Assembly (NCBI GenBank): GCA_965229885.1
Contig: CBDDJX010000002.1
Location: 423,945-487,944 of the forward strand
From: Vicinamibacterales bacterium
Lineage (GTDB): Bacteria > Acidobacteriota > Vicinamibacteria > Vicinamibacterales > CAVVIG01
Reading direction: 5' to 3'
Length of the DNA: 64,000 nt
Part shown: piece by piece, positions 49,381 to 63,412 of the stretch
Layout of the letters: each line of letters begins with the position of its first letter
How positions within the stretch are numbered: the first letter of the stretch is position 1
The notes under the pieces: generated by a model
What the model was told of the DNA's origin: nothing
What the model saw: only the letters and a program-made list of their open reading frames with translations
The model's database searches: none
Made by a program: the position numbers and the translations under genes

Positions 49381-51238
49381 TGAGCTTGATCCGGTTTCGT
49401 GGACACAATCCGAAAGGTGGATACGATGTCCAGAAGGGGATCACGCAGAGCGGGACGACGCGCGCGACGACAGTTCACGGAGGAGTTCATGGCCGGCGCG
49501 GTCCGGCTCGTGTTGGATGAGGGCAAGACGATCGGTGCCGGCTCGCGCGACCTGGTTCTGATGCCGTCATCGCTGGCGCATTGGGTCCGACACGCCCAAG
49601 CCGATCGGACGAAAGGCAAGACCGGCCTGACGCCGGCGGAGCGGGAGGAGCTGGCACGGCTCCGCAAAGCGAATCGGATCCTCGCCGAGGAGCGCGACAT
49701 CCTGAAACAAGCGGCGGCCTTCTTCGCGAAGCAGAGCCGATGAGGTGTACCTTCATCGCGGCGAAGAAGGCCGAGCATACGGTGAGCATTCTCTGTCGAT
49801 GTCTGCGCGTGACGCGCAGCGGCTTCTACGCCTGGCAGCGTCGTCCGGAATCGACGCACACCCGTGATGATCGTCGGCTGACCGTGCTGGTGCGGGCCTC
49901 GTTCGAGGAGAGTACGCAGCGGTACGGCAGCCCGCGCATTCACGAGGATCTGATCGAGCAGGACGAGCACGTCAGCCGCAAACGGGTCGTGCGATTGATG
50001 CAGGAAGACGGCCTGCAGGCGCGGCGCCGGAAGCGCTACAAGCTGACAACCATGAGTGATCACGCCCAACCGGTCGCGGCGAATCTACTGGACCGCCAGT
50101 GCGAGGCGGACGCGCCGAATCAGCGGTGGGTCGGCGACACGACCGAGTTCGTCATCGGCAGCAGCGGCAAGCTCTACCTCGCGGCGATCCTAGATCTGTT
50201 CTCGCGGTGCATCGTGGGCTGGGCCGTCAGCGCCGTGAACGACCGTCATGTGACGATCACCGCCCTGGAGGCGGCGCTCACGCGCCGGTGCCCCGAGATC
50301 GGCCTGCTCCAGCACTCCGACCAGGGCTCGACATACGCGAGCGAGGATGATCAGGACGTCCTCGAGGCGCGCGGCATCGTGTGCAGCATGAGCCGGCGGG
50401 GCAACTGCCACGATAACGCGGTGGAAATGGAAAGCTGCTTCTCGACGAGGTGTTCTCTCAAAGCGGAACTCGCCGGTCGCTTCGACAGCTGCAGCGAGGC
50501 CAAGCGGGAGTTGTTCGCTTACATCGAGGTGTTCTCTAACCAACGTCGCCGGCACTCGACGATCGGCCAGATCCCCGGCAAGCCGTACTCTTGGAAGAGG
50601 CGGAGGAAGAGCGGGCAGCCGTAACGATCGCGGTCGAGAGCAGGCCGTCCGGCGCTTCTTCCACCTGAAGCCGCTGTTGCGACTGACGAGGCGACTTCGA
50701 ACGGGGTATTCCAGCGAGCGTGCGCGGCAGCGTCCGCGGTGACGGCGTAGACGGAGCAGGCGTTTCTTGGTCCAATGCTTCGTGCGGGCGTTCGTCGTTG
50801 TACTCGTGACGAAACCGAACCGGATCTGTTGGTCGCGCAGATTGGCGCTCGGGGGACGCGTGGCATCGGGATCAGCGGCCGATGCATCCGCTCATGGCGC
50901 CCGTTCTGCTGCGGGCACGCGGGGGCGATCAGTTCCGGGAGGATCCCGAGCCGAATCCACCAGACGGACAACGTGGACAGGCGACCGAGCGCGGTAGTGG
51001 CGAAGGGCACGCCATTGTCGGCGGATGATCCCCAGCAAGCCGTACTCTTGGAAGAGGCCGAGGAAGTGTCGGGCGGCGTACGAGCGGCGCGCGCGGGCAG
51101 AGGGCAGGGACGCCATGGCAAACCGCACAGGACGCGGTTTCCCACAGCGCCCACACCCGTCGCTCTTGTCTGGAAATGAGGAACGAAGAGCCACTCAAAC
51201 AGCGTAGTGAACCTGTCCACCAGATCGGATCAGGCTCA
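49381..51238 (+). mobile_element. IS3-family element (orfA 49426-49743, orfB from 49740), interrupted by foreign transposase fragments
   Basis: IRs TGAGCTTGATCCGGTTTCGTGGACA / revcomp TGAGCCTGATCCGATCTGGTGGACA; WVGDTT, HSDQGS, GNCHDNA; no TSD. Confidence 0.88.
50570..51075 (-). mobile_element. IS481-like transposase fragments nested in the IS3 element
   Basis: LFQEYGL, DNGVPF, WWIRLGI, PQQNGRHERMHR; about 40-bp direct repeat at 50570 and 51027. Confidence 0.7.
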
Positions 51239-51794: not shown

Positions 51795-52484
51795 TCAAAC
51801 ACTCGACTGATCGGTGCCAAGTCGCGCTACGAGCCACGCGTGGGTGCGACGCGGTCTCAGCGCCCTCTCAGCCGATGGTTCGAGAACGCGCCTCAGATCA
51901 TCTACGGAGTCGATGTCGTACCACGAAGGAATTAGCGTGACAGAGAGTCGGTGCACCTCGGCCGCGGACAGGGTCGCTGCCAGGACGTCGGGGGTGCTCC
52001 ACGGGATTCCGTGAAAGATCTCTGGATGGTTCGTGCGAAGACTAACCAGGTAGTAGCCTCCGTCCATGGAGGGACCGAGGACAAGGGGATCGCCCTCGCG
52101 CCTGAGCACAGCGATCCCCTGTTCGACGTGCTCGGCCGGCAACGTGGGCAGATCCGATCCAATGATTGTCACCGCGGAGCACCCCAGGGCAAAGATGTCC
52201 GCGAACGCGTGCTCGAGCCGTTCGCCGAGATCGTCTCCGCGCTGGGGCAACACGCGGAACTTGCCGCCGGCAAGCTGAGCGATCTCGGCGCCCCCCGATT
52301 CGGGCGCGAACACCAACAGGCGCTCAACGCCTGGCACGCTTTGCGCTATGTCCAGCGTGTCAAGCAGAATGGCGCACCGCAAGTCCGTTCCGTCGTCCAC
52401 GCCAAGCGACTTCAGTAGTCGTTTCTTGCCGCGCGCGTCTGACGGCGCTCGCGCCATCACGGCCAGGGCGACTCGATCACTCAT
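51795..52484 (-). CDS. DUF2064/TIGR04282-type transferase (arsenosugar-cluster-associated family)
   Basis: QRGDDLGERL, IGSDLPTL, LGPSMDGGYYL, IPWST, DIDSVDDL. Confidence 0.87.
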   Translation of the reverse strand: MSDRVALAVMARAPSDARGKKRLLKSLGVDDGTDLRCAILLDTLDIAQSVPGVERLLVFAPESGGAEIAQLAGGKFRVLPQRGDDLGERLEHAFADIFALGCSAVTIIGSDLPTLPAEHVEQGIAVLRREGDPLVLGPSMDGGYYLVSLRTNHPEIFHGIPWSTPDVLAATLSAAEVHRLSVTLIPSWYDIDSVDDLRRVLEPSAERALRPRRTHAWLVARLGTDQSSV

Positions 52485-53244
52485 CGATCGTCCCTGGCTC
52501 CGAGGCTCGTCTGCCACTGGCTGTCGAACCACGAGACGTCCGATAGCGTTGCGCCAACCACTCGGGAGATACGCCGAGAAAAAAGAGAACGACAAGCAGT
52601 AGGTTCTCCGAACTCCGGCGCAGCCATCCATCAGCCTCCCAACGGCGTGCCGACGTCACGGCCGGAAGCGCCGAATGGTACAGGCGACCCGCTCTTCGCA
52701 GGCGTCGCACTAAGTCGACATCCTCCATCAGCGGGAGCTCGCGATATCCGCCGAGCGCGACAAACACATCGCGCCGCGCGAATAGCGCCTGATCGCCGTA
52801 CGGCAACTGGAACCATCGCACGCGAGCCGCGACGCCACGCTCGATCACCCGGGCCCAGCGACTCGAGGAGTCGAGCTGGAACCTGAAGCTCCCGCCAATC
52901 ACCGGCCGAGCCGCCGAAATCCTCGTCAGCTCCTCGAGCCATCCCGCGGGAAGCCGCGTGTCAGCGTGGAGGAATAGCAGCCAAGTGCCCGTCGCGCCCG
53001 ATGCGCCGACGTTCATCTGTCGACCGCGGCCTGGAAGCGACGCAACCCAACGTACCCGCGGCGCGGTACGTTGAAGTTCCTCAATCGCCGGTGTGTGCGG
53101 GCTTCCGTTGACGGCGATGATCTCCACGCTCGCGTGGTGACCGATCGATGCGAACGCCCGCTCCAGGCACTTCGTATCGTCGAGGACCGGCATGATCACG
53201 GACACGAAAGGCACGCGGCTATCGTCCATCGCCAGATGATTCAA
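52477..53244 (-). CDS. GT2 glycosyltransferase, TIGR04283-type
   Basis: GRGRQMNVGA, LLFLHADT, PYGDQALF, PLMED, TSARRW. Confidence 0.88.
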   Translation of the reverse strand: MNHLAMDDSRVPFVSVIMPVLDDTKCLERAFASIGHHASVEIIAVNGSPHTPAIEELQRTAPRVRWVASLPGRGRQMNVGASGATGTWLLFLHADTRLPAGWLEELTRISAARPVIGGSFRFQLDSSSRWARVIERGVAARVRWFQLPYGDQALFARRDVFVALGGYRELPLMEDVDLVRRLRRAGRLYHSALPAVTSARRWEADGWLRRSSENLLLVVLFFLGVSPEWLAQRYRTSRGSTASGRRASEPGTIDE

Positions 53245-53274: not shown

Positions 53275-53949
53275 TCAATGACGACAGTAACTGCACACGG
53301 TGGACTGAGTCGGAACCGTCGACACTGTGGTCAGGCCTGTAAGCTTCTGGAGCCAGCCGCCGCGGAGCAGCCCGCCGAGCGCCGCACCGTAGGCTGCATG
53401 CGCGGCGAGTACAGTCGCCGCAAAGTGCCATCCGAATTCACGGCCGAAGAGCCCGACGCCGAGTGACTCGACAACGGGGCTGCCGAGGAAACCGATGCCG
53501 ACGCCGAGACCGTATGCGATCGCCAGCGCGACTGAGCGACCGCCCGTCACCACCACAAAGATGATGCCGAACGCGGCGCCGTTCCAGAAGTGATACGCGA
53601 AGCCAGCGACGTCTGACCAGGTCGACGGCCCCAAGGCAAACCGATCGAGCAGCAGCACGCCCATCAACTGGGGTAGGTTGCCAGGCATGAAACCCAGTCG
53701 AAACCCAGGGTAACGGAGGGCCTCCAGCGCGAGGGTTGCCACCGCGCCCGCGACCGCCCCGCGCGCAATCACGGACGCGAGATCTGGTTGCCAGTGCCGC
53801 GACACGAACCAGACCACGAGCAGGCCGGCGATCGACGGCAGCAGCGCGACCAGCGCGAGATCGTGAAGCGACGCGTACCCGAGCTGCGCGACCGGAAACA
53901 CTAGGGGTCCGACGGCGGCCAGCAGCATGACAATGGCACGCATAAACAT
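53275..53949 (-). CDS. Membrane protein of unknown function
   Basis: About 6 TM segments, YHFWNG, C-terminal CSYC; AGGAG RBS. Confidence 0.65.
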   Translation of the reverse strand: MFMRAIVMLLAAVGPLVFPVAQLGYASLHDLALVALLPSIAGLLVVWFVSRHWQPDLASVIARGAVAGAVATLALEALRYPGFRLGFMPGNLPQLMGVLLLDRFALGPSTWSDVAGFAYHFWNGAAFGIIFVVVTGGRSVALAIAYGLGVGIGFLGSPVVESLGVGLFGREFGWHFAATVLAAHAAYGAALGGLLRGGWLQKLTGLTTVSTVPTQSTVCSYCRH

Positions 53950-54012
53950 CACATTCTCCTGACTAAGACGACGGAAGCGACGGGACATGCGCCCGCCGCT
54001 CCCCACCACGGC

Positions 54013-54522
54013 CTACTGCGCCGCCATCGTCGCGAGCCCACCGATCTTCTCGTCGAGCATCTGCGCGATCATTCCGATCTTGTCGTTCTTGAACTGCCCG
54101 AGTAGCGTCGACGGCTTGTCGTACTGAACGTACGTCTTCCCGTCGGTGTCGGTGTAGACCGCGATGCGCAGTGGCACATACAGGCCCACCGCGTGGCTCT
54201 GCTCGAACAGCTGCTTCCCCACAGTCGGATTGCCCACCAGAAACACCGTCGCCTTGAGGCTTAATCCCGTCATCGACAGCATCTTGCCCTGGTCGACCTG
54301 GACCATTACCATCATGCCGTTCTTTGTGACGAGCGACTTCGCCGCGTCGCTCACCTGTTCGAACGACTTGCTGGACGCCACCGTGACCAGGGCGTCGGCG
54401 GCGCCATCAGCTGCGTACGCCGGCACGGCGACCACCGAGATTGCCAGCGCGAGCGCGAGCGCACCCGCCCACATCTGGCGCCATTTATTGCGTTCCCGAC
54501 CTTCGTTGCGGATGATAGACAT
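54013..54522 (-). CDS. Exported DUF302 domain protein
   Basis: Signal peptide; VGNPTVG, VGLYVPLRIAVY, YDKPS. Confidence 0.82.
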   Translation of the reverse strand: MSIIRNEGRERNKWRQMWAGALALALAISVVAVPAYAADGAADALVTVASSKSFEQVSDAAKSLVTKNGMMVMVQVDQGKMLSMTGLSLKATVFLVGNPTVGKQLFEQSHAVGLYVPLRIAVYTDTDGKTYVQYDKPSTLLGQFKNDKIGMIAQMLDEKIGGLATMAAQ

Positions 54523-54632
54523 TGCTTTCTGCTCCACCTGGCTGCACGAGCTGCGTGAATCGCAATCGCGTGTTCCTAGAGTGAGTGCGACGGTCTGGCC
54601 GTTCGTTACAGCGGCTGCTTCAGGATGTGAGA

Positions 54633-54949
54633 TTGACCACGGAAGCGACCGACGACCTGATCGAGCGCTTGCGCCGGCGCGACGAGCCCACGCTCCTCGC
54701 GATCGTGCAGGAGTATGCACGGCCGCTCTATCGGGCGGCCCGAGGCATGGGCTTTCGCGACCATGAGGCGGAAGACCTCGCCCAAGATGTACTGACCACC
54801 TTCATCCAGACGCTGGACCGCTTCGAGGGGCGCTCGCAGGTCAAAACCTAGCTATTCGGAATCCTCCATAACAAGGTTCACGAGCGGCGGCGGTCGCTCG
54901 CCCGCGAATCGTCGACCGACTCTATCGACGACACGTTCGAGTCGCGCTT
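54633..54949 (+). pseudogene. ECF sigma factor, nonsense mutation at 54849 and truncated by IS
   Basis: AEDLAQD..DRFEGRSQVKT*LFGILHNK; IS end begins at 54950. Confidence 0.82.
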
Positions 54950-55713
54950 TGAATCGTACCGGGTTCGTCGGAGGGCTCATTGCTTGAGAGGATGGAGCCC
55001 ATGGCACGACCGAGGAAGTATTCAGCTGAGGTTACGAGAGCGGGCCATTCGGATGGTCCGCGCGCATGGTCCCGAGCATCCGTCGCAGTGGGCCGCGATC
55101 ACGGCGATCGCGAGCAAGTTCGGCTGCACCGGTGAGACGCTGCGGAATTGGGTGCGCCAGGCCGAACGCGATACGGGCCGGCGGGGTGGCCTGACGACCG
55201 ACGAGCGCCAGCGCCTGAAGGAACGGGAACGCGACAATCGCGAATTGAGACGCGCGAATGAGATCTTGCGGAAGGCCTCCGCATATTTTGCCCAGGCGGC
55301 GCGCGACCGCCGAGTGAAGTAATGGTCCAGTTTGCGGATGACCACCGGGCCACGTAGGGGGTTGAGCCGATCTGCGCGGTGTTGCCGATCGCCCCCTCGA
55401 CGTATTTTCTGCACCACGCCCGGCAGGTGAACCCGCCGCCGCGGCCGGCGCGCGCCAAGCGCGACGACGACTTGCGGATCGCCATCCAGCGGGTCTGGGA
55501 CGCGAATTGGCAGGCATACGGACCGCGGAAGGTCTGGCAGCAGCTCGGCCGCGAAGACGTCGACGTCGCGCGCTGTATGGTCGAGCGGCTGATGGGGGCG
55601 ATGGGCTTGGCCGGCGCGGTCCGCGGCCGCGCATGGGTCACGACGCCCGCCGCTGCGACCGCCGGCGTGCGTCCCCCGGCTTTGGTCGACCGCCAGTTCA
55701 CCTCGCCGCGGCC
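54950..55713 (+). mobile_element. Truncated IS3-family (IS51/IS6110-like) copy
   Basis: Starts TGAATCGTACCGGG; near-identical to 61890-63197; extra T near 55033 breaks orfA; ends within orfB. Confidence 0.9.
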
Positions 55714-57407
55714 GCGGACCGCGCCGGTCGGCGGATCGATCTCCTCGGCGAACAACGCCACGTCGTTGCCGAACGACAGTAGTTGCTCGAACAGCTCGCC
55801 GGCCGCCGCGACATCGCCTTGCAGGGCCAGCGCCTCGACGCCCCAGAAGCTGCAGATCCCGAACGCGGCTTCGCCCCCGGTCAGCCCGTCATCATCGCCC
55901 AGATAGCGGTACAACAGACCATTGATGCCGAGCCGTTCCCGCACACGTGCCACGGTGCCGCGTATTCGTGCCGATTGCGGATCGGCATAGCCCATGAGCG
56001 ACAGCAGCAGGAGGCTGGCATCGAGCGTGTCGCCGTCGAACACGCTGACGTAGCTGCCCAACCGTTCGTTGAACCCGTGCGCCTCGATCGCGTCGCGAAC
56101 CGCGTCGCGTCGGCCGGCACGTGCCTCAGCTCGCACAGGCGCGACAGGCGGTCCAGCGCCACCCAGCACATCGCCTTCGAATGCGTATGATGCTGCCGGC
56201 CGCTGCGTGGCTCCCAGATGCCTTCGTCCGGCTCGCCCCACCTGCGGACGACCACGTCGCCGAACCCCGCGAGCGTGCGGGCCGTGACGCGATCGAGCTG
56301 CCCGCCACGCTCGACGTAGTGCCAGGCGGCGTCGATCACTTCACCGTAGGTGCCGAGCTGCAGTTGATCCGTGGCGGCGTTGCCGATGCGTACCGGCGCC
56401 GACCGGGCATGGCCCTCGAGATGATCGAGCACGGACTCCGGTAGGCGCGATTCGCCGTACACGTCGTACAGGATTTGGAGTTCGGGCCAGGTCAGTCGCG
56501 TCGCGTGCAGCAGCCAGGAGAGGAACGCCTCGCTCTCGATCATGAAGCCGAGCTCTTCGAAGGCGCGCAGCGACAGCGAGGCATCGCGCAGCCAGCAGTA
56601 GCGATAGTCCCAGTTGCGCGTGCCACCGATCGCCTCCGGCAGCAACGCGGTCGGCGCGTAGGTCAGCAACTTGAGCGTAATCGCGCTCCGGCGGACCACC
56701 TCGGTGTACGGGCCGTCGTAGCGGCATGAGCGCATCCACTCGCGCCACCAGGCGACGGACCGGGCGATGCGGTCGGCTGCAGCGCCACCCAGAGGCAGGA
56801 GCACGAGGGGCAGCCCTCGGTCGTAGGCGACCGAGAATGTCCGCGTATCGCCGGCCTGCAACCGCTCCCGGCCGCGCGCGCCCGGCCCACTCTCGACGGT
56901 CATCGGGATGTCGCTCCGGATCGCCAACACGCTGGCTTGGTGCTCGCAGGTGAGCCCGAAGGCATTCTCGATCAGCTGCGGCACCATTCGGCCGTAGTCG
57001 GGGCGCGGATCGAACAGGACCTCAATTTCGACTGTGCCCTCGAGACACTCCACCTGCCGCAGCAGCTCATGGTCGGGCCACAGCTCCCGAGCCTTGTCGT
57101 GTCCAGACGCGACCGGCATCAAATCGGTGAGGCGCACAACGCCGCTCGCGGTCCGGAAGGTGGTTTCGAGCACCGCGGTCTCGCCCACGTACCAGCGCGT
57201 CGTGGTGAACGGGTCCACCGGCGCAATCCTGAACCGGCCCCCACGGCGTGCGTCCAGTAACGCTGCAAAGAGTGATGGACTGTCGAACCGGGGCCAGCAG
57301 AGCCAGTCGACCGACCCGTCCGTGGAAACGAGCGCCGCCGAGCGGCAATCGCCAATCAGCGCGTAATCACCGATCGGACGGTATACGGGCTGGTCTCTCT
57401 CGCTCAT
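55713..57407 (-). pseudogene. Glycoside hydrolase family 15 (trehalase/glucoamylase-like), frameshifted near 56100, 3' truncated
   Basis: IGDYALIGDC, PRFDS, RNWDYRYCWLRD, DEGIWE; second frame LDASLL, LLYRY, ICSFW, FAEE. Confidence 0.87.
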
Positions 57408-57759
57408 CCGCCTCCTGTTGGACGTTCCACGCCGGGTGTCTGAGCCAGTCAGGGGGGCGGCATGCACACATCCTGCGGTCACCATCCTCGGTCCCCGCCT
57501 ACTCGCTGATTGCCTGAGTTCGTCCCGCCAACAACAGAATCGAGGTTGCCGCATCGCCGCAGTCCGCGACCGCGGCTCGTGTGAGACAGATCACTCGAAA
57601 CGAAGATGATCCGCAGTCCCCTCCGTGATGTCGAACGTCGATAGGTCACAATCAGGAAGTGATAACCGGGTCACGCTCGACGGCAAGGATCGGATCACCA
57701 TTCACTACACGCCGAACACGCTCAAGACGCTCCTCGTCCACTCGACACGCGGACGAGAA

Positions 57760-57906: not shown

Positions 57907-59031
57907 TCAGGCACCACCCATCAACATGCCAAGCCGCCACGCGGCAGCCGAAACAACCGCCGAGGCGGGCAACGTGATCGCCCAGGCGGCGATGATGCTG
58001 GACACGGTGGACCACCGCACCGCGCCTCGACCAGAGCGAAGTCCGGCGCCGACGATTGCGCCACTCGCCACGTGCGTCGTCGATACCGGCAGCGCCACGA
58101 ACGAGGCGACGAGCACGAGCGCGGCCGCAACGCCGCTCGCGGCCAATCCTTCGAGCGGGTCGATCTCGGTGACGCGCTCCGCGAGAGTTTCGGTGACCCG
58201 GCGACCGCCGAGGTAGCTGCCGGCGCCCATGACCACAGCGCCGATCAGGTACAACGGCGGGGCGGCAACGCCCAGCGCCGCCGCGGCGGCAATCGCCAGC
58301 GCAGCGATCTTCGGCGTGTCGTTGAGGCCGCGTGCAAAGCTCAGCGTGGCAGTCGTCACCCAATGCAGGCCATCGGTCACGCGTACAGCGCTGATCGTCT
58401 CTTCAGTGGCGCACGCACGCTGCTCGTCGTCGACGACGAGCGGCCACACGACGGGCTGGACGGCCACGGCGGAGGCCAAGCCCTCCATGGGCACTCCTAT
58501 CAGCGGCCGTTCGGTGACGCACACGCAGTACCGTGCTGCGGCCGGCAACCGGCGGTTCGCCAGCGTGTGCACCAGATACGACAACCCGGCCGCCACGATG
58601 GGGCTCAGCGCCAGCGGCGCCGCGACGGCGCCAACGACGAGCGGCCACCGCACGCCGTGCAGGCCGTCGGCGGCTAGGGCCGCCCCGACAATGGCGCCAA
58701 TCAACGAGTGCGTGGTCGACACCGGAAGCCCGGTACGCGAAGCGGTCAGTACCCACGCGAAGGCTCCGACCGCGACGGCGAGCGGAAATAACGGCGCGCG
58801 CGCGAGCGTCCCGTCGATCAGGCCCGTGCTGAACGTCCGGAAGATCGACGTCGTGAGCGCGAGCGCCGCGACGGCGCCGGCAGCCGTCCAGATGGTGCCC
58901 CACATCAGCCCCTGCCGATAGCTCGCCAGCCGACTGCCCACGAGCGTCGCCACGCCCTTCGCCACGTCGTTGGCGCCGTTCGCCCAGGCGACACCCGCGG
59001 CGCAGATAATCGTGAACAGTGCCAGCATCAT
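57907..59031 (-). CDS. PiT-family anion transporter (variant)
   Basis: NGANDVAK, PVSTTH twice, RGLNDTPK. Confidence 0.87.
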   Translation of the reverse strand: MMLALFTIICAAGVAWANGANDVAKGVATLVGSRLASYRQGLMWGTIWTAAGAVAALALTTSIFRTFSTGLIDGTLARAPLFPLAVAVGAFAWVLTASRTGLPVSTTHSLIGAIVGAALAADGLHGVRWPLVVGAVAAPLALSPIVAAGLSYLVHTLANRRLPAAARYCVCVTERPLIGVPMEGLASAVAVQPVVWPLVVDDEQRACATEETISAVRVTDGLHWVTTATLSFARGLNDTPKIAALAIAAAAALGVAAPPLYLIGAVVMGAGSYLGGRRVTETLAERVTEIDPLEGLAASGVAAALVLVASFVALPVSTTHVASGAIVGAGLRSGRGAVRWSTVSSIIAAWAITLPASAVVSAAAWRLGMLMGGA

Positions 59032-59034
59032 GCA

Positions 59035-61511
59035 TCAACAACAACCGGAGCCGGGTGTGCAGCAGTCACTATCCCCGTCGATATTGATATGGCTGCTTGG
59101 ACCTTCGAGGACCGCAAACGACCCCGCGTACGGTGCGTGCGAGAGCTTCGCCGCTGTATCGGTGCACACTTCAACGGGCGTGCCGCGCGGAAACAGATGT
59201 CCCTCTTCATCGATAGTGGCCTTGAGTGGCCCGAGATACACCGCGTACTGGCCTACGTAGGTGCATCCAGCTTTCTTCTCGAACTTGTAGGCGCGCGCCG
59301 TCACCGAATAGAACTTGCACCCTTCTACCTCGCGCCAAAAGGCCTTCTTGAGAATCGACACGCCGTAGAAGCCGGCGCGCTCGAGGCCCGCCAGAAACGC
59401 CTCCTCGGTCAGTGCGCCGCTGATGCATTCGCCCCACAACTGGCCATCGGCGCGCATCTTCGGTGGCACCTCACGATCGGCGACGATGTCGGCAACAACG
59501 GCCCGGCCGTAGTCTTTGAGGACCCGCCACATCTCTCGAAATACTTTCGGCTTGTCTGGCGACAGATTGATGACGCAGTTCGAGGTCACGACATCGGCAG
59601 TGGCATCGTCGATCGGAATGGATTCGAGGAAACCGCGCCGGAACACGACGACGTCCCATCCGAGCGTACGGGCGACCCGCAGGCGGCAGTCGTTCGCCAC
59701 TTTCAGCATCGCTTCCGTCATGTCGATGCCGTATACCCGGCCCTCGGAACCGACCTTCTTCGCCGCGATGAAGCAGTCGATGCCCGCACCAGACCCGAGG
59801 TCGACCATCGTTTCGCCGGGCGCGAGCGCGGCGGCCGACACCGGGCTGCCGCAGCCGTAGAACCGGTCAACCACGTCGCGCGGGATGTGCGCGAGATCCG
59901 ACTCGTCCGGGCGCACCGGACAGCACAGCTCCGCCTGGGGCTCCTCGGCGGCGTGACCGTAGAACTCGCGGACCAATCCGCGCGACCGCTGAATGACTTC
60001 CTCCGACAGCACGCACGCGGAATGTGTCGTGCGCACGATCGCATCCTCGTCGTGTAACGTCCGCTCGCCCATCGCCCGGAATACGACGGGCCGGTCAAAG
60101 CCTGAACGCGGCTGCACGGTGGCGCGGCCCTCGGTAGCCATTTCCGACCAGGCGTCCGCGGCGAGCCCTTTGTACAGGTCGCAGTAGGGATCGTGCCCGG
60201 CGAAGCTGCGCGTGGCCCAGTAGCCGTGCTCGACGTCGCCGCCGCCACAGAGAAATTTCAGCGGGCAGGGCCGGCACAGTGGCTTGCGCTCGACCGTGGC
60301 CTCGCGCAGCTCACGACAGACCGGGCTGTCCTTCCAAATCCGCTCGAGCGACGCGGCGCTGAGATCGCCGCACCGGAGTTCCGACACGCCTGCCATCGAT
60401 GCCGAGGGGTACACGCAGCCGTCGGTGTAGACGCAGAGGCTGTTCCAGCCCGCCCCGGCCAGATCGTTTTTCACGCCGGCCCGGCCGTCCAGGCGGAGAC
60501 GAAATTCTTCGACGTTGTCGATCGTGATGCCCAGTTCGGCAGCGACGGCCCGGCCACGGCGCACAGCGGCCAGAATCGCATCGGCCGCCGGGAGGCTCGC
60601 AAACGGTCCGTCCAGCACGCGGCCGCGGCGGTGCGGCCACAGCAGGTGCACATTCCGAACGTCGAGCGTTGCCGCCAGCCGGACGAGCGCTTCGACATCG
60701 TTCAGGTTGTGTGCGAGCAGCACCATCGTGATGCTCGGCCGAAGACCGGCGCAACGGCGTCGCGGATCCCTGCCACGATTCGCTCGAACGTTCCGGCGCC
60801 ACGGATCGGATCGTTCGTCTGGGCCGACGCCCCGTCGAGGCTGATTTGCACGCGCAATCGGTCTCCCGCAAGCGCGGCGAGGCCGGGGAGTCGTTCCCCT
60901 TTGAACAGGGTGCCGTTGGTCAGGATCACCAACTCGCGTTGATGGTCCTCGACGATGCGGCGCGCGAGGTCCAGCGCGTCTGGGCGCGCAAGCGGTTCGC
61001 CGCCGGTGAAGAGGAACCGCTCGACACCGAGCGCGGCGCCCTGATCGATGGCGTCCACCAGGCGGCCGGTCGGCAGCCCCTGTGTCTGGTCGGGTCCCGA
61101 CGAGACGAGACAATGGGCGCATGCCAGATTGCAGAAATCGTTCACGTGCAGCCATATTTCGCGGAGACGGTCGGTCTGCAGGTACGCTGAGCGCCCAAGG
61201 TACGGGACCGGGACCGCGCCGTCAGTCGAGATGAAGTCATGACGCAACGCGTCGCGCGCGAACGTTTCGACATGCAGCCACGCCCTGACCACATCCAAGC
61301 CCGTTTCGGCCGCGTACGCCGACACGACAGCGCGCAGCGGCGTCTTGCCGTCGAGCAGCGTCAGCAGCCGGAGGCCGCGTTCATCGGTAACCACCCAGTT
61401 CGGCTTGGCGGGATCGAGCGCAACGATGGCGCCCGAGGTGCGTATAGTCGTGTCGGCCGGCGCTCGAAGCGTCGCCGTGTCGTCGAGTGCAAGAGGAATC
61501 ACCGAGTCCAT
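59035..61511 (-). CDS. PqqD-like / radical SAM / SPASM / ArsM-like methyltransferase fusion (about 825 aa), one frameshift near 60750
   Basis: CNLACAHC, GGEP, TNG; CRPCPLKFLCGGG..YC; LCCP, YGCGSP, DLGSGAG, GIDMT, SNCVINL, WGECISGAL; terminal CC..CC. Confidence 0.85.
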
Positions 61512-61571
61512 CGAAAATACCTTTCCATCAGTCCACGCACGAGAGGGGTCCGTAGCGATCGACGGTACTGA

Positions 61572-61690
61572 TCACCCGCGCTCATGATACACGTGCACGA
61601 ACCCGGCAGTTTCCTCGTCGAACACGGCGCGATCGACGCCAGCCAACTCGAGCGTGATCGTCTTCACGTCGTGCCCCCTCCACTTAGAGA
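61572..61690 (-). pseudogene. Fragment of a mercuric-reductase-like flavoprotein disulfide reductase (dimerisation domain)
   Basis: VKTITLELAGVDRAVFDEETAGFVHVYHERG. Confidence 0.5.
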
Positions 61691-61889
61691 GCCTCCCTCG
61701 AGCAATTCTGATTCCGGGCGAACGCATCACACCTGCCCGTCCTTGGTCTTCTCGTCTGGTACGCCCCGCCGGGGCGGATGTGGAACCGCTCACGTTGGCA
61801 CCCCGAGGCGAGGCAGGAGCCACACCTGAACGAGCAACCAGATCACCAGTGCCGCTACGCCTGCCAACGCGCTTTCCATCGCACCGGGC

Positions 61890-63197
<1,308 letters not shown>

Positions 63198-63412
63198 GGC
63201 TCTACGCAAGGGGCACACGTTTGGGATATCTGCTGGCACCCTTGACCGTACCGCCTGAATGCCGCCCAGGCCGCAGAATTCATGCACCCACGCGCCTCGG
63301 AGTACGAAGCGCGTTACGATCAGCAGACCGCGGTAGCCGGAGTCACTTAATTCGCTTTCCGAGAATTCCGGCACGATTCATTTTGTCAGCGATCTATGAC
63401 AGTGTTGGGTAC

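Follow-up and report, generated by a model that had tools for sequence, protein, structure and literature searches.

A frameshifted gene joining a peptide maturase-type radical SAM module to an ArsM-type methyltransferase in a decaying arsenosugar-type locus of a Vicinamibacterales bacterium

A stretch of 64,000 nucleotides (nt) from a Vicinamibacterales bacterium (assembly GCA_965229885.1, contig CBDDJX010000002.1, positions 423,945 to 487,944; referred to as the window) contains two overlapping open reading frames (ORFs) on the minus strand, between positions 59035 and 61511, which are the two pieces of a gene for an unusual fusion protein. Its modules are, in this order, a PqqD-like RRE (recognition element for the precursors of peptides that are made by ribosomes and modified after translation, RiPPs), a radical S-adenosylmethionine (SAM) core with a CxxxCxxC motif, a SPASM domain, a complete ArsM and a CC..CC tail. 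We consider the following joint explanation to be rather probable: the window encodes a three-module enzyme of 825 residues; its gene is a pseudogene due to the loss of one base; it resides in the remnant of an arsenosugar-type gene set that was disrupted by insertion sequences (ISs); and the intact relatives perform the work of ArsM and ArsS within a single chain.

In frame 1 of the minus strand, the gene is read from 61511 (M...GIRDAVA) to base 60750 (254 aa, P0001), after which this reading is out of frame and ends with a stop at position 60702. The continuation is in frame 2, which is open from 61155: starting with base 60750, it reads AGLRPSITM... and reaches its stop at 59035-59037 (571 aa, P0002). 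The sum of 254 and 571 is 825 aa, which equals the length of the closest intact relative (P0003). In P0003, the junction reads IREAVAAGLRPSVSM with no residue missing, and the two ORFs of the window join across a one-base gap at 60750. The original prediction, that restoring one base near 60750 yields a protein of about 825 aa, is thus exact. The features of the gene, all on the minus strand, are as follows.

60750..61511, minus strand: 5' part of the fusion gene; 254 aa with the PqqD-like RRE and the first half of the radical SAM core (Radical_SAM, PF04055, residues 124-252, 75.9 bits, above the cut-off of 29.5)
60750..60750, minus strand: frameshift site; one base fewer than in intact relatives, from contig comparison
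59035..60750, minus strand: 3' part of the fusion gene; 571 aa plus stop, with the rest of the radical SAM core, the SPASM domain, a linker, the ArsM module and the Cys tail
61230..61427, minus strand: PqqD-like/RRE domain, residues 29-94; PF05402 with 19.7 bits when scanned alone, and a fold to which the CteB and TigE N-terminal domains align
61110..61133, minus strand: CxxxCxxC radical SAM cluster motif (C127, C131, C134), 100% conserved
60262..60453, minus strand: SPASM auxiliary Fe-S cluster domain, P0002 residues 100-163; PF13186 with 25.3 bits (cut-off 21.5) and TIGR04085 with 29.1 bits (cut-off 27)
59086..59982, minus strand: ArsM-type As(III) SAM methyltransferase module including its C-terminal domain, P0002 residues 257-555; identified by phmmer, Foldseek (E 1e-22) and VIA-align (Z 27.6)
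59038..59082, minus strand: flexible C-terminal tail ending in CC-x6-CC; tail Cys conserved in 97-99% of members, predicted local distance difference test (pLDDT) below 50 for residues 813-825

Conservation refers throughout to 116 aligned members of the family, which reach down to 40-50% identity. A PqqD-like N-terminal domain had been proposed from the letters of the DNA and is borne out. In the window copy, PF05402 scores 17.8 bits (E 0.004), below the gathering cut-off of 23.4, and the same profile matches the N-terminal domains of 15 of 28 relatives at E <= 0.05 (best 1.2e-9). In the core, the stretch T169-G170-G171-E172-P173, which we take to be the SAM-binding GGE motif, is invariant in the family. 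The assignment to the SPASM type rather than to ArsS or ArsL also holds. Both SPASM cut-offs are passed, the ArsS model (TIGR04167) reaches only 49.7 bits against its cut-off of 300 and covers profile positions 2-141, and the RCCLKC tail is lacking. In the SPASM region, the Cys at P0003 positions 360, 381, 399, 413, 416, 422 and 444 each occur in 88-99% of members. A full SPASM pattern has seven or eight Cys, including CxxCxxxxxCxxxC. Four residues after C422, where this pattern has its last Cys, the family has an invariant Asp (D426).

The fold of this half was analyzed with an AlphaFold2 model of P0003, computed from a 115-sequence alignment (A1), which has a pLDDT of 84.7 and a predicted template modeling score (pTM) of 0.83. 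Residues 14-90 are modeled as strands followed by three helices, and the model predicts a winged-helix RRE fold that precedes the radical SAM core, an arrangement also found in CteB. With VIA-align, residues 18-462 align with the sactisynthase CteB (Z 30.3, root-mean-square deviation (rmsd) 4.5, 410 residues) and residues 13-466 with TigE (Z 27.0). The alignments begin at chain residues 2 and 5, respectively, which is the N terminus of the targets, and CteB and TigE both carry an N-terminal RRE. The same three-part fold (Z 27-30, 402-410 residues aligned) is shared with the RRE-radical SAM-SPASM maturases of RiPPs (CteB, 5wgg/5why; TigE, 8vpo; SuiB; SkfB) and with anSME, as is the SPASM pattern CxxCxxxxxC. 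The fusion differs from them in its low identity (13-20%), in the Asp that replaces the next Cys, and in being joined to an ArsM.

The second half is an ArsM. With phmmer, the module matches CrArsM (5evj, E 3.8e-40) and CmArsM (4fr0, E 4.9e-38) with the YGCG, SNCV and GEC motifs aligned, and Methyltransf_31 scores 103 bits. Residues 526-809 of the model align with chain residues 39-347 of As(III)-bound CmArsM (6cx6; Z 27.6, rmsd 7.2, 283 residues), so that the predicted structure has the three-domain ArsM fold including the C-terminal domain. Compared to CmArsM, CrArsM and human AS3MT, the module has 33-37% identity, the same fold (Z 23-27.6) and equivalents of the Cys in CC, YGCG, SNCV and GEC. 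These four As(III)-binding motifs are conserved in at least 99% of members; with the terminal cysteines (the protein ends in ...DCCTPGSGCC, after the ArsM module), all motifs claimed originally are present and conserved in 97-100%. The fusion differs from the single ArsM proteins in having about 510 additional N-terminal residues, the CC..CC tail, and a score below the cut-off of 263 for the arsenite methyltransferase model NF008823 (228.4 bits in the window and 227.1 bits in P0003). For the fusion protein as a whole, no NCBIfam model attains its cut-off. The linker between the modules (504-510) and the tail (813-825) are disordered in the model. Within the low-confidence linker between SPASM and ArsM (P0003 495-505, about 59983-60015 in the window), an invariant THSACVLSEE was observed, with C500 being 100% conserved.

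Fusions of this kind are common elsewhere. A protein search with the C-terminal piece gave 2523 matches among 8000 scored candidates. The best 120 of these were inspected (72-91% identity), and 112 of the 120 are 800-900 aa long, nearly all with Radical_SAM and methyltransferase Pfam domains. A scan of genome contigs identified 27 loci with the full fusion protein, hosted by Vicinamibacteria/Vicinamibacterales, other Acidobacteriota metagenome-assembled genomes (MAGs), Nitrospirota (50% identity) and Desulfobulbaceae (two loci, 40%). Of the 27 loci, 26 encode the two halves in a single frame, and the ArsM Cys are retained in the family. One locus (L002, 4047-6520, from a MAG, 85% identity) has its own frameshift in the N-terminal half, at a site other than that of the window, which could be due to a separate mutation or to faulty assembly. 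In the Desulfobulbaceae (L028, 9110-11887, and L030), an additional Cys/His-rich domain follows the ArsM module, and the open frame runs off the contig. The fusion is a variant of the theme that combines an ArsM with a radical SAM enzyme. The fusion family looks undescribed: no paper on a radical SAM-ArsM fusion was found in literature searches, which had most subscription journals outside their coverage.

In the window, the fusion gene is broken. The frameshift was checked by aligning Logan contigs of four public runs (X1, X15, X17 and X20) on 60300-61200; contigs, not reads, were compared. X15 and X17 each have one contig across the whole region and X20 has two, one of which spans 60613-61200, all with zero differences from the window. 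These three runs have three organism labels and come from three studies, and all carry the same broken allele. The contig from X1, a seawater metagenome, has 3 differing bases in 901 plus one additional G behind 60750, by which the frame is kept. An assembly or sequencing artefact, with an intact gene in the organism, is extremely unlikely. It would draw on the restriction to contigs and on X15, one of the identical runs, which may be the source of the assembly. However, the contigs from X17 and X20, from other organisms and other studies, span 60750 without a difference, and the site (GCGCCGG) has no long homopolymer. The frameshift is therefore real, short of an artefact common to all these contigs. 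It is probably recent, because it is the only visible lesion: the window copy retains all 266 columns that are conserved to at least 97% in the family.

The gene in the window strain is thus a pseudogene, as the base missing at 60750 has inactivated it. It might alternatively still function, either as two polypeptides or via ribosomal frameshifting, which would agree with the 266 intact columns, with an ATG just past the break (...SITMVLL...) and with the intact PiT gene downstream. This is very unlikely. The break falls within the radical SAM barrel, between residues 254 and 255, and cuts it midway; the partner reductase gene has been destroyed, and IS-associated DNA interrupts the cluster, which fits decay; and a recent mutation explains the intact conservation equally well. 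Programmed frameshifting was considered for the site and rejected, as it has no slippery heptamer.

The surroundings of the pseudogene consist of the following features.

61889..63198, minus strand: IS3-family insertion sequence with 40-nt terminal inverted repeats (HTH_Tnp_1, HTH_21, rve), which cuts off the 5' part of the gene for a flavin adenine dinucleotide (FAD) oxidoreductase
61502..61679, minus strand: remnant of this MerA-like FAD pyridine-nucleotide disulfide oxidoreductase; residues ~398-432 and 472-506 of 506 are left, in two different frames
57907..59031, minus strand: PiT-family permease, full length (PHO4, 241 bits), beginning 3 nt past the fusion stop
55881..57554, minus strand: truncated GH15/trehalase-like gene between PiT and the partial IS; only positions 2-209 of 427 of the Glyco_hydro_15 profile
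54950..55713, plus strand: incomplete copy of the IS at 61889..63198, inverted and 99% identical
54013..54720, minus strand: DUF302 protein (PF03625, 47.7 bits)
53275..54009, minus strand: ORF of 244 aa between the DUF302 and TIGR04283 genes, with no Pfam or NCBIfam match
52477..53244, minus strand: TIGR04283, "arsenosugar biosynthesis glycosyltransferase" (210.4 bits, cut-off 182)
51795..52631, minus strand: TIGR04282 (DUF2064), "arsenosugar biosynthesis glycosyltransferase" (170.2 bits, cut-off 134; DUF2064, 108 bits)

In close relatives, the FAD reductase gene is whole and overlaps the fusion start by 13 nt. The intact reductase of L002 scores 716 bits with NF004991 and 387 bits, under the cut-off, with MerA. 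The window locus is an IS-disrupted, decaying remnant of an arsenosugar-type gene set (FAD reductase, PiT, TIGR04283 and TIGR04282), because the IS3 element and an internal deletion have destroyed the FAD reductase gene, while the partial IS and the truncated GH15 gene split the cluster. The TIGR04283 and TIGR04282 genes, which are linked to arsenic by their NCBIfam naming, are on the same strand as the fusion, 5.8-7 kb downstream. The GH15 gene was rejected as a part of the conserved neighborhood, having no counterpart in 80 related loci. In the complete IS, orfB is split into two ORFs (HTH_21, 62134-62769; rve, 61929-62276). An additional rve/HTH_21 transposase is encoded on the plus strand at 49581-50624, so that three IS3-type elements are found within 14 kb.

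There are hints that the genome of the window acquired the fusion horizontally, because the sampled genomes of its own taxonomic family lack the fusion, the closest proteins are found elsewhere, and IS copies flank the locus. Not counting the window genome (G000), the fusion occurs in 0 of 24 genomes of this family in the order-level sample and in 0 of 5 in the class-level sample. The closest proteins (83-91% identity) are from metagenomic contigs and from MAGs of Acidobacteria or Vicinamibacteria, of groundwater or other origin. GC content was also considered as a mark of foreign DNA and discarded: it is 0.63-0.71 throughout the region, which does not look foreign.

An indication of function is the company that the fusion keeps in other genomes. 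Of 41 genomes sampled from the same order, three contain the fusion (G000, G038 and G040) and six others true ArsS; TIGR04283 is above its cut-off in 13, among them the three with the fusion and all but one of the six with ArsS. ArsS is missing from G000, where TIGR04167 matches best to the fusion gene itself (49.9 bits). In L002, the order is FAD reductase, fusion, DUF1499 and, further along, TIGR04283 and TIGR04282; in L023 it is TIGR04283, PiT, fusion. In G010 and G036, ArsM, ArsS, PiT and FAD reductase are followed by TIGR04282 and TIGR04283 in either order, and the FAD reductase is 58-60% identical to the fusion-linked one of L002. G039 has the same order except for a PiT match. In G027, ArsS is accompanied by FAD reductase, TIGR04283, TIGR04282 and DUF1499, with no ArsM within the 14 kb fetched. 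Of these four ArsS loci, all have the FAD reductase, TIGR04283 and TIGR04282, three an adjacent ArsM, two PiT and one DUF1499. The PiT gene is 3' of the fusion in L003, 5' of it in L023, and 3' of ArsS in G010 and G036. Ten further loci from a marine clade have TIGR04283 two genes upstream, with MsrP and MsrQ between it and the fusion. Thus, one set of accessory genes is found both with ArsM plus ArsS and with the fusion. We also considered whether ArsS and the fusion strictly exclude each other; this held among the 41 relatives (three versus six, no overlap) and failed in a larger sample of the class (see below), and it was dropped as an argument.

Two further observations concern related genes. 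In the window's own family, a locus of G019 (L107, contig C39, 5379-7241) codes for an unfused true ArsM (NF008823, 371 bits) followed by a radical SAM protein of 332 aa. The best NCBIfam match of the latter is the Rv1681 family (87 bits), which is also the best match for the radical SAM part of the fusion. The pair adjoins genes matching the FAD reductase and, more weakly, TIGR04283 and TIGR04282. In addition, G047:C2:1733681-1735009 and several ArsM-like matches in relatives have a single in-frame TGA, which may specify selenocysteine (compare the "UU" families of NCBIfam) or indicate broken genes.

The fusion probably performs ArsM-plus-ArsS-type chemistry with an unrelated radical SAM module of the peptide maturase type, because the genes that accompany it are also found around ArsS in four related genomes. 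The ArsM module would bind As(III) through its four conserved Cys and methylate it with SAM, as its motifs suggest. By analogy to ArsS, the radical SAM module would reductively cleave a second SAM and join a carbon radical to trivalent, probably dimethylated, arsenic, resulting in a further As-C bond; ArsS-like 5'-deoxyadenosylation would be the default guess for this step. The Cys-rich tail may ferry As(III) between the two sites, and the adjacent FAD reductase may re-reduce Cys pairs. We infer As-C bond formation and channeling by the fusion, and likewise its substrate and reaction and what the tail, RRE and reductase do. The fusion had originally been proposed to lead toward an undescribed organoarsenical. 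This is not sustained: the neighboring genes speak for the known arsenosugar-type pathway and not clearly for a product that has yet to be described.

ArsS is reported to add a 5'-deoxyadenosyl radical to trivalent dimethylarsenic, DMAs(III), yielding 5'-deoxy-5'-dimethylarsinoyl-adenosine, DDMAA (PMC13598754). The fusion resembles the ArsM and ArsS of arsenosugar biosynthesis in combining a four-Cys SAM methyltransferase with a radical SAM enzyme and, in genomes of the same order, in its accessory genes (MerA-like FAD reductase, PiT, DUF1499, TIGR04283 and TIGR04282). It differs in being one chain, in having an RRE-radical SAM-SPASM part instead of ArsS, and in the Cys tail at the ArsM end. 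In arsinothricin biosynthesis, ArsL is reported to have a Cys-rich C-terminal tail that binds arsenite, and an RCCLKC tail defines ArsL (10.1101/2024.02.01.577332). ArsL and ArsM resemble the activity proposed for the fusion by pairing radical SAM As-C formation with methylation by a partner ArsM, and resemble the fusion itself by the Cys-rich C-terminal tail. The ArsM part of the fusion also matches NF040538 over its C-terminal domain (189 bits, far below the cut-off of 500). In contrast, the radical SAM part of the fusion lacks the RCCLKC tail, and ArsL is not known to be SPASM-type. No arsQ-like gene was seen with the fusion.

Several points weigh against the assignment of ArsM-plus-ArsS-type chemistry. 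The ArsM module is below every NCBIfam ArsM cut-off (228 versus 263, 189 versus 500 and 148 versus 400 bits). In structure, the closest counterparts of the radical SAM module are RRE-bearing peptide maturases (CteB, TigE, SuiB, anSME), which alone suggests a peptide substrate. In the marine clade, the immediate neighbors of the fusion are MsrP and MsrQ, and in five loci of this clade (L010, L012, L013, L016 and L027) the flanks fetched contain no TIGR04283. Classical ars resistance genes were not seen among the conserved neighbors. The names of TIGR04282 and TIGR04283 derive from gene context, not from experiment. Finally, in the sample of 151 genomes from the class, 11 have the fusion and 64 have ArsS (including one flagged as unpublished, G143, which enters no other result). 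Two of the 11 (G074 and G096) have both, so that the fusion is no strict alternative to ArsS.

The family might instead consist of RiPP-type peptide maturases, with the RRE binding a leader peptide, the radical SAM/SPASM part cross-linking or modifying the peptide, the methyltransferase methylating it, and arsenic not being a substrate. The end-to-end alignment of the N-terminal 460 residues with the RRE-bearing CteB and TigE and the PqqD matches in just over half of the members scanned speak for this option. We rate it as distinctly unlikely, because there is almost no room for an adjacent precursor gene and because the arsenic-binding Cys are invariant, down to 40% identity. There is hardly any intergenic space, given the 13-nt overlap with the upstream FAD reductase gene and the 3 nt, or an overlap, downstream. 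No precursor gene is evident, in that neighbor clustering revealed no conserved small ORF, although it used ORFs of at least 80 aa and shorter peptide genes were not searched. Moreover, the accessory genes are those that flank ArsM-ArsS.

It is also unlikely that the fusion is solely a methyltransferase for arsenite (or another metalloid or a thiol), in which the radical SAM/SPASM half is a built-in Fe-S redox or regulatory module and no extra As-C bond is formed. ArsM catalysis needs the re-reduction of Cys pairs, and the dedicated FAD disulfide reductase, whose gene overlaps the fusion gene in close relatives, would suit such an enzyme. However, the fully conserved CxxxCxxC and the invariant TGGEP stretch argue for real radical SAM turnover, and the position of the gene matches that of ArsS, a catalytic enzyme.

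To our knowledge, ArsS and ArsL are the only radical SAM enzymes that form As-C bonds. It is tempting to speculate that the fusion represents a second, evolutionarily independent As-C-forming radical SAM lineage, derived from peptide maturases, in which the RRE docks the protein's own CC..CC tail as a swinging As(III) carrier between the ArsM and the radical SAM/SPASM sites. It would then be a self-contained "carrier-arm" organoarsenical synthase, with a product that is not necessarily that of ArsS. We regard this more specific proposal as doubtful.

In the window strain, the cluster is being lost via IS insertion, deletion and a one-base frameshift. For the family, As-C bond formation by the fusion would, if true, make it a third, unrelated radical SAM solution to this reaction. 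The fusion is abundant in uncultured Vicinamibacteria and occurs also in Nitrospirota and Desulfobulbaceae, which bears on the question of which organisms produce complex organoarsenicals in soil, in groundwater and in the sea. It shows which two activities belong together, and an intact ortholog is a single-gene target for expression.

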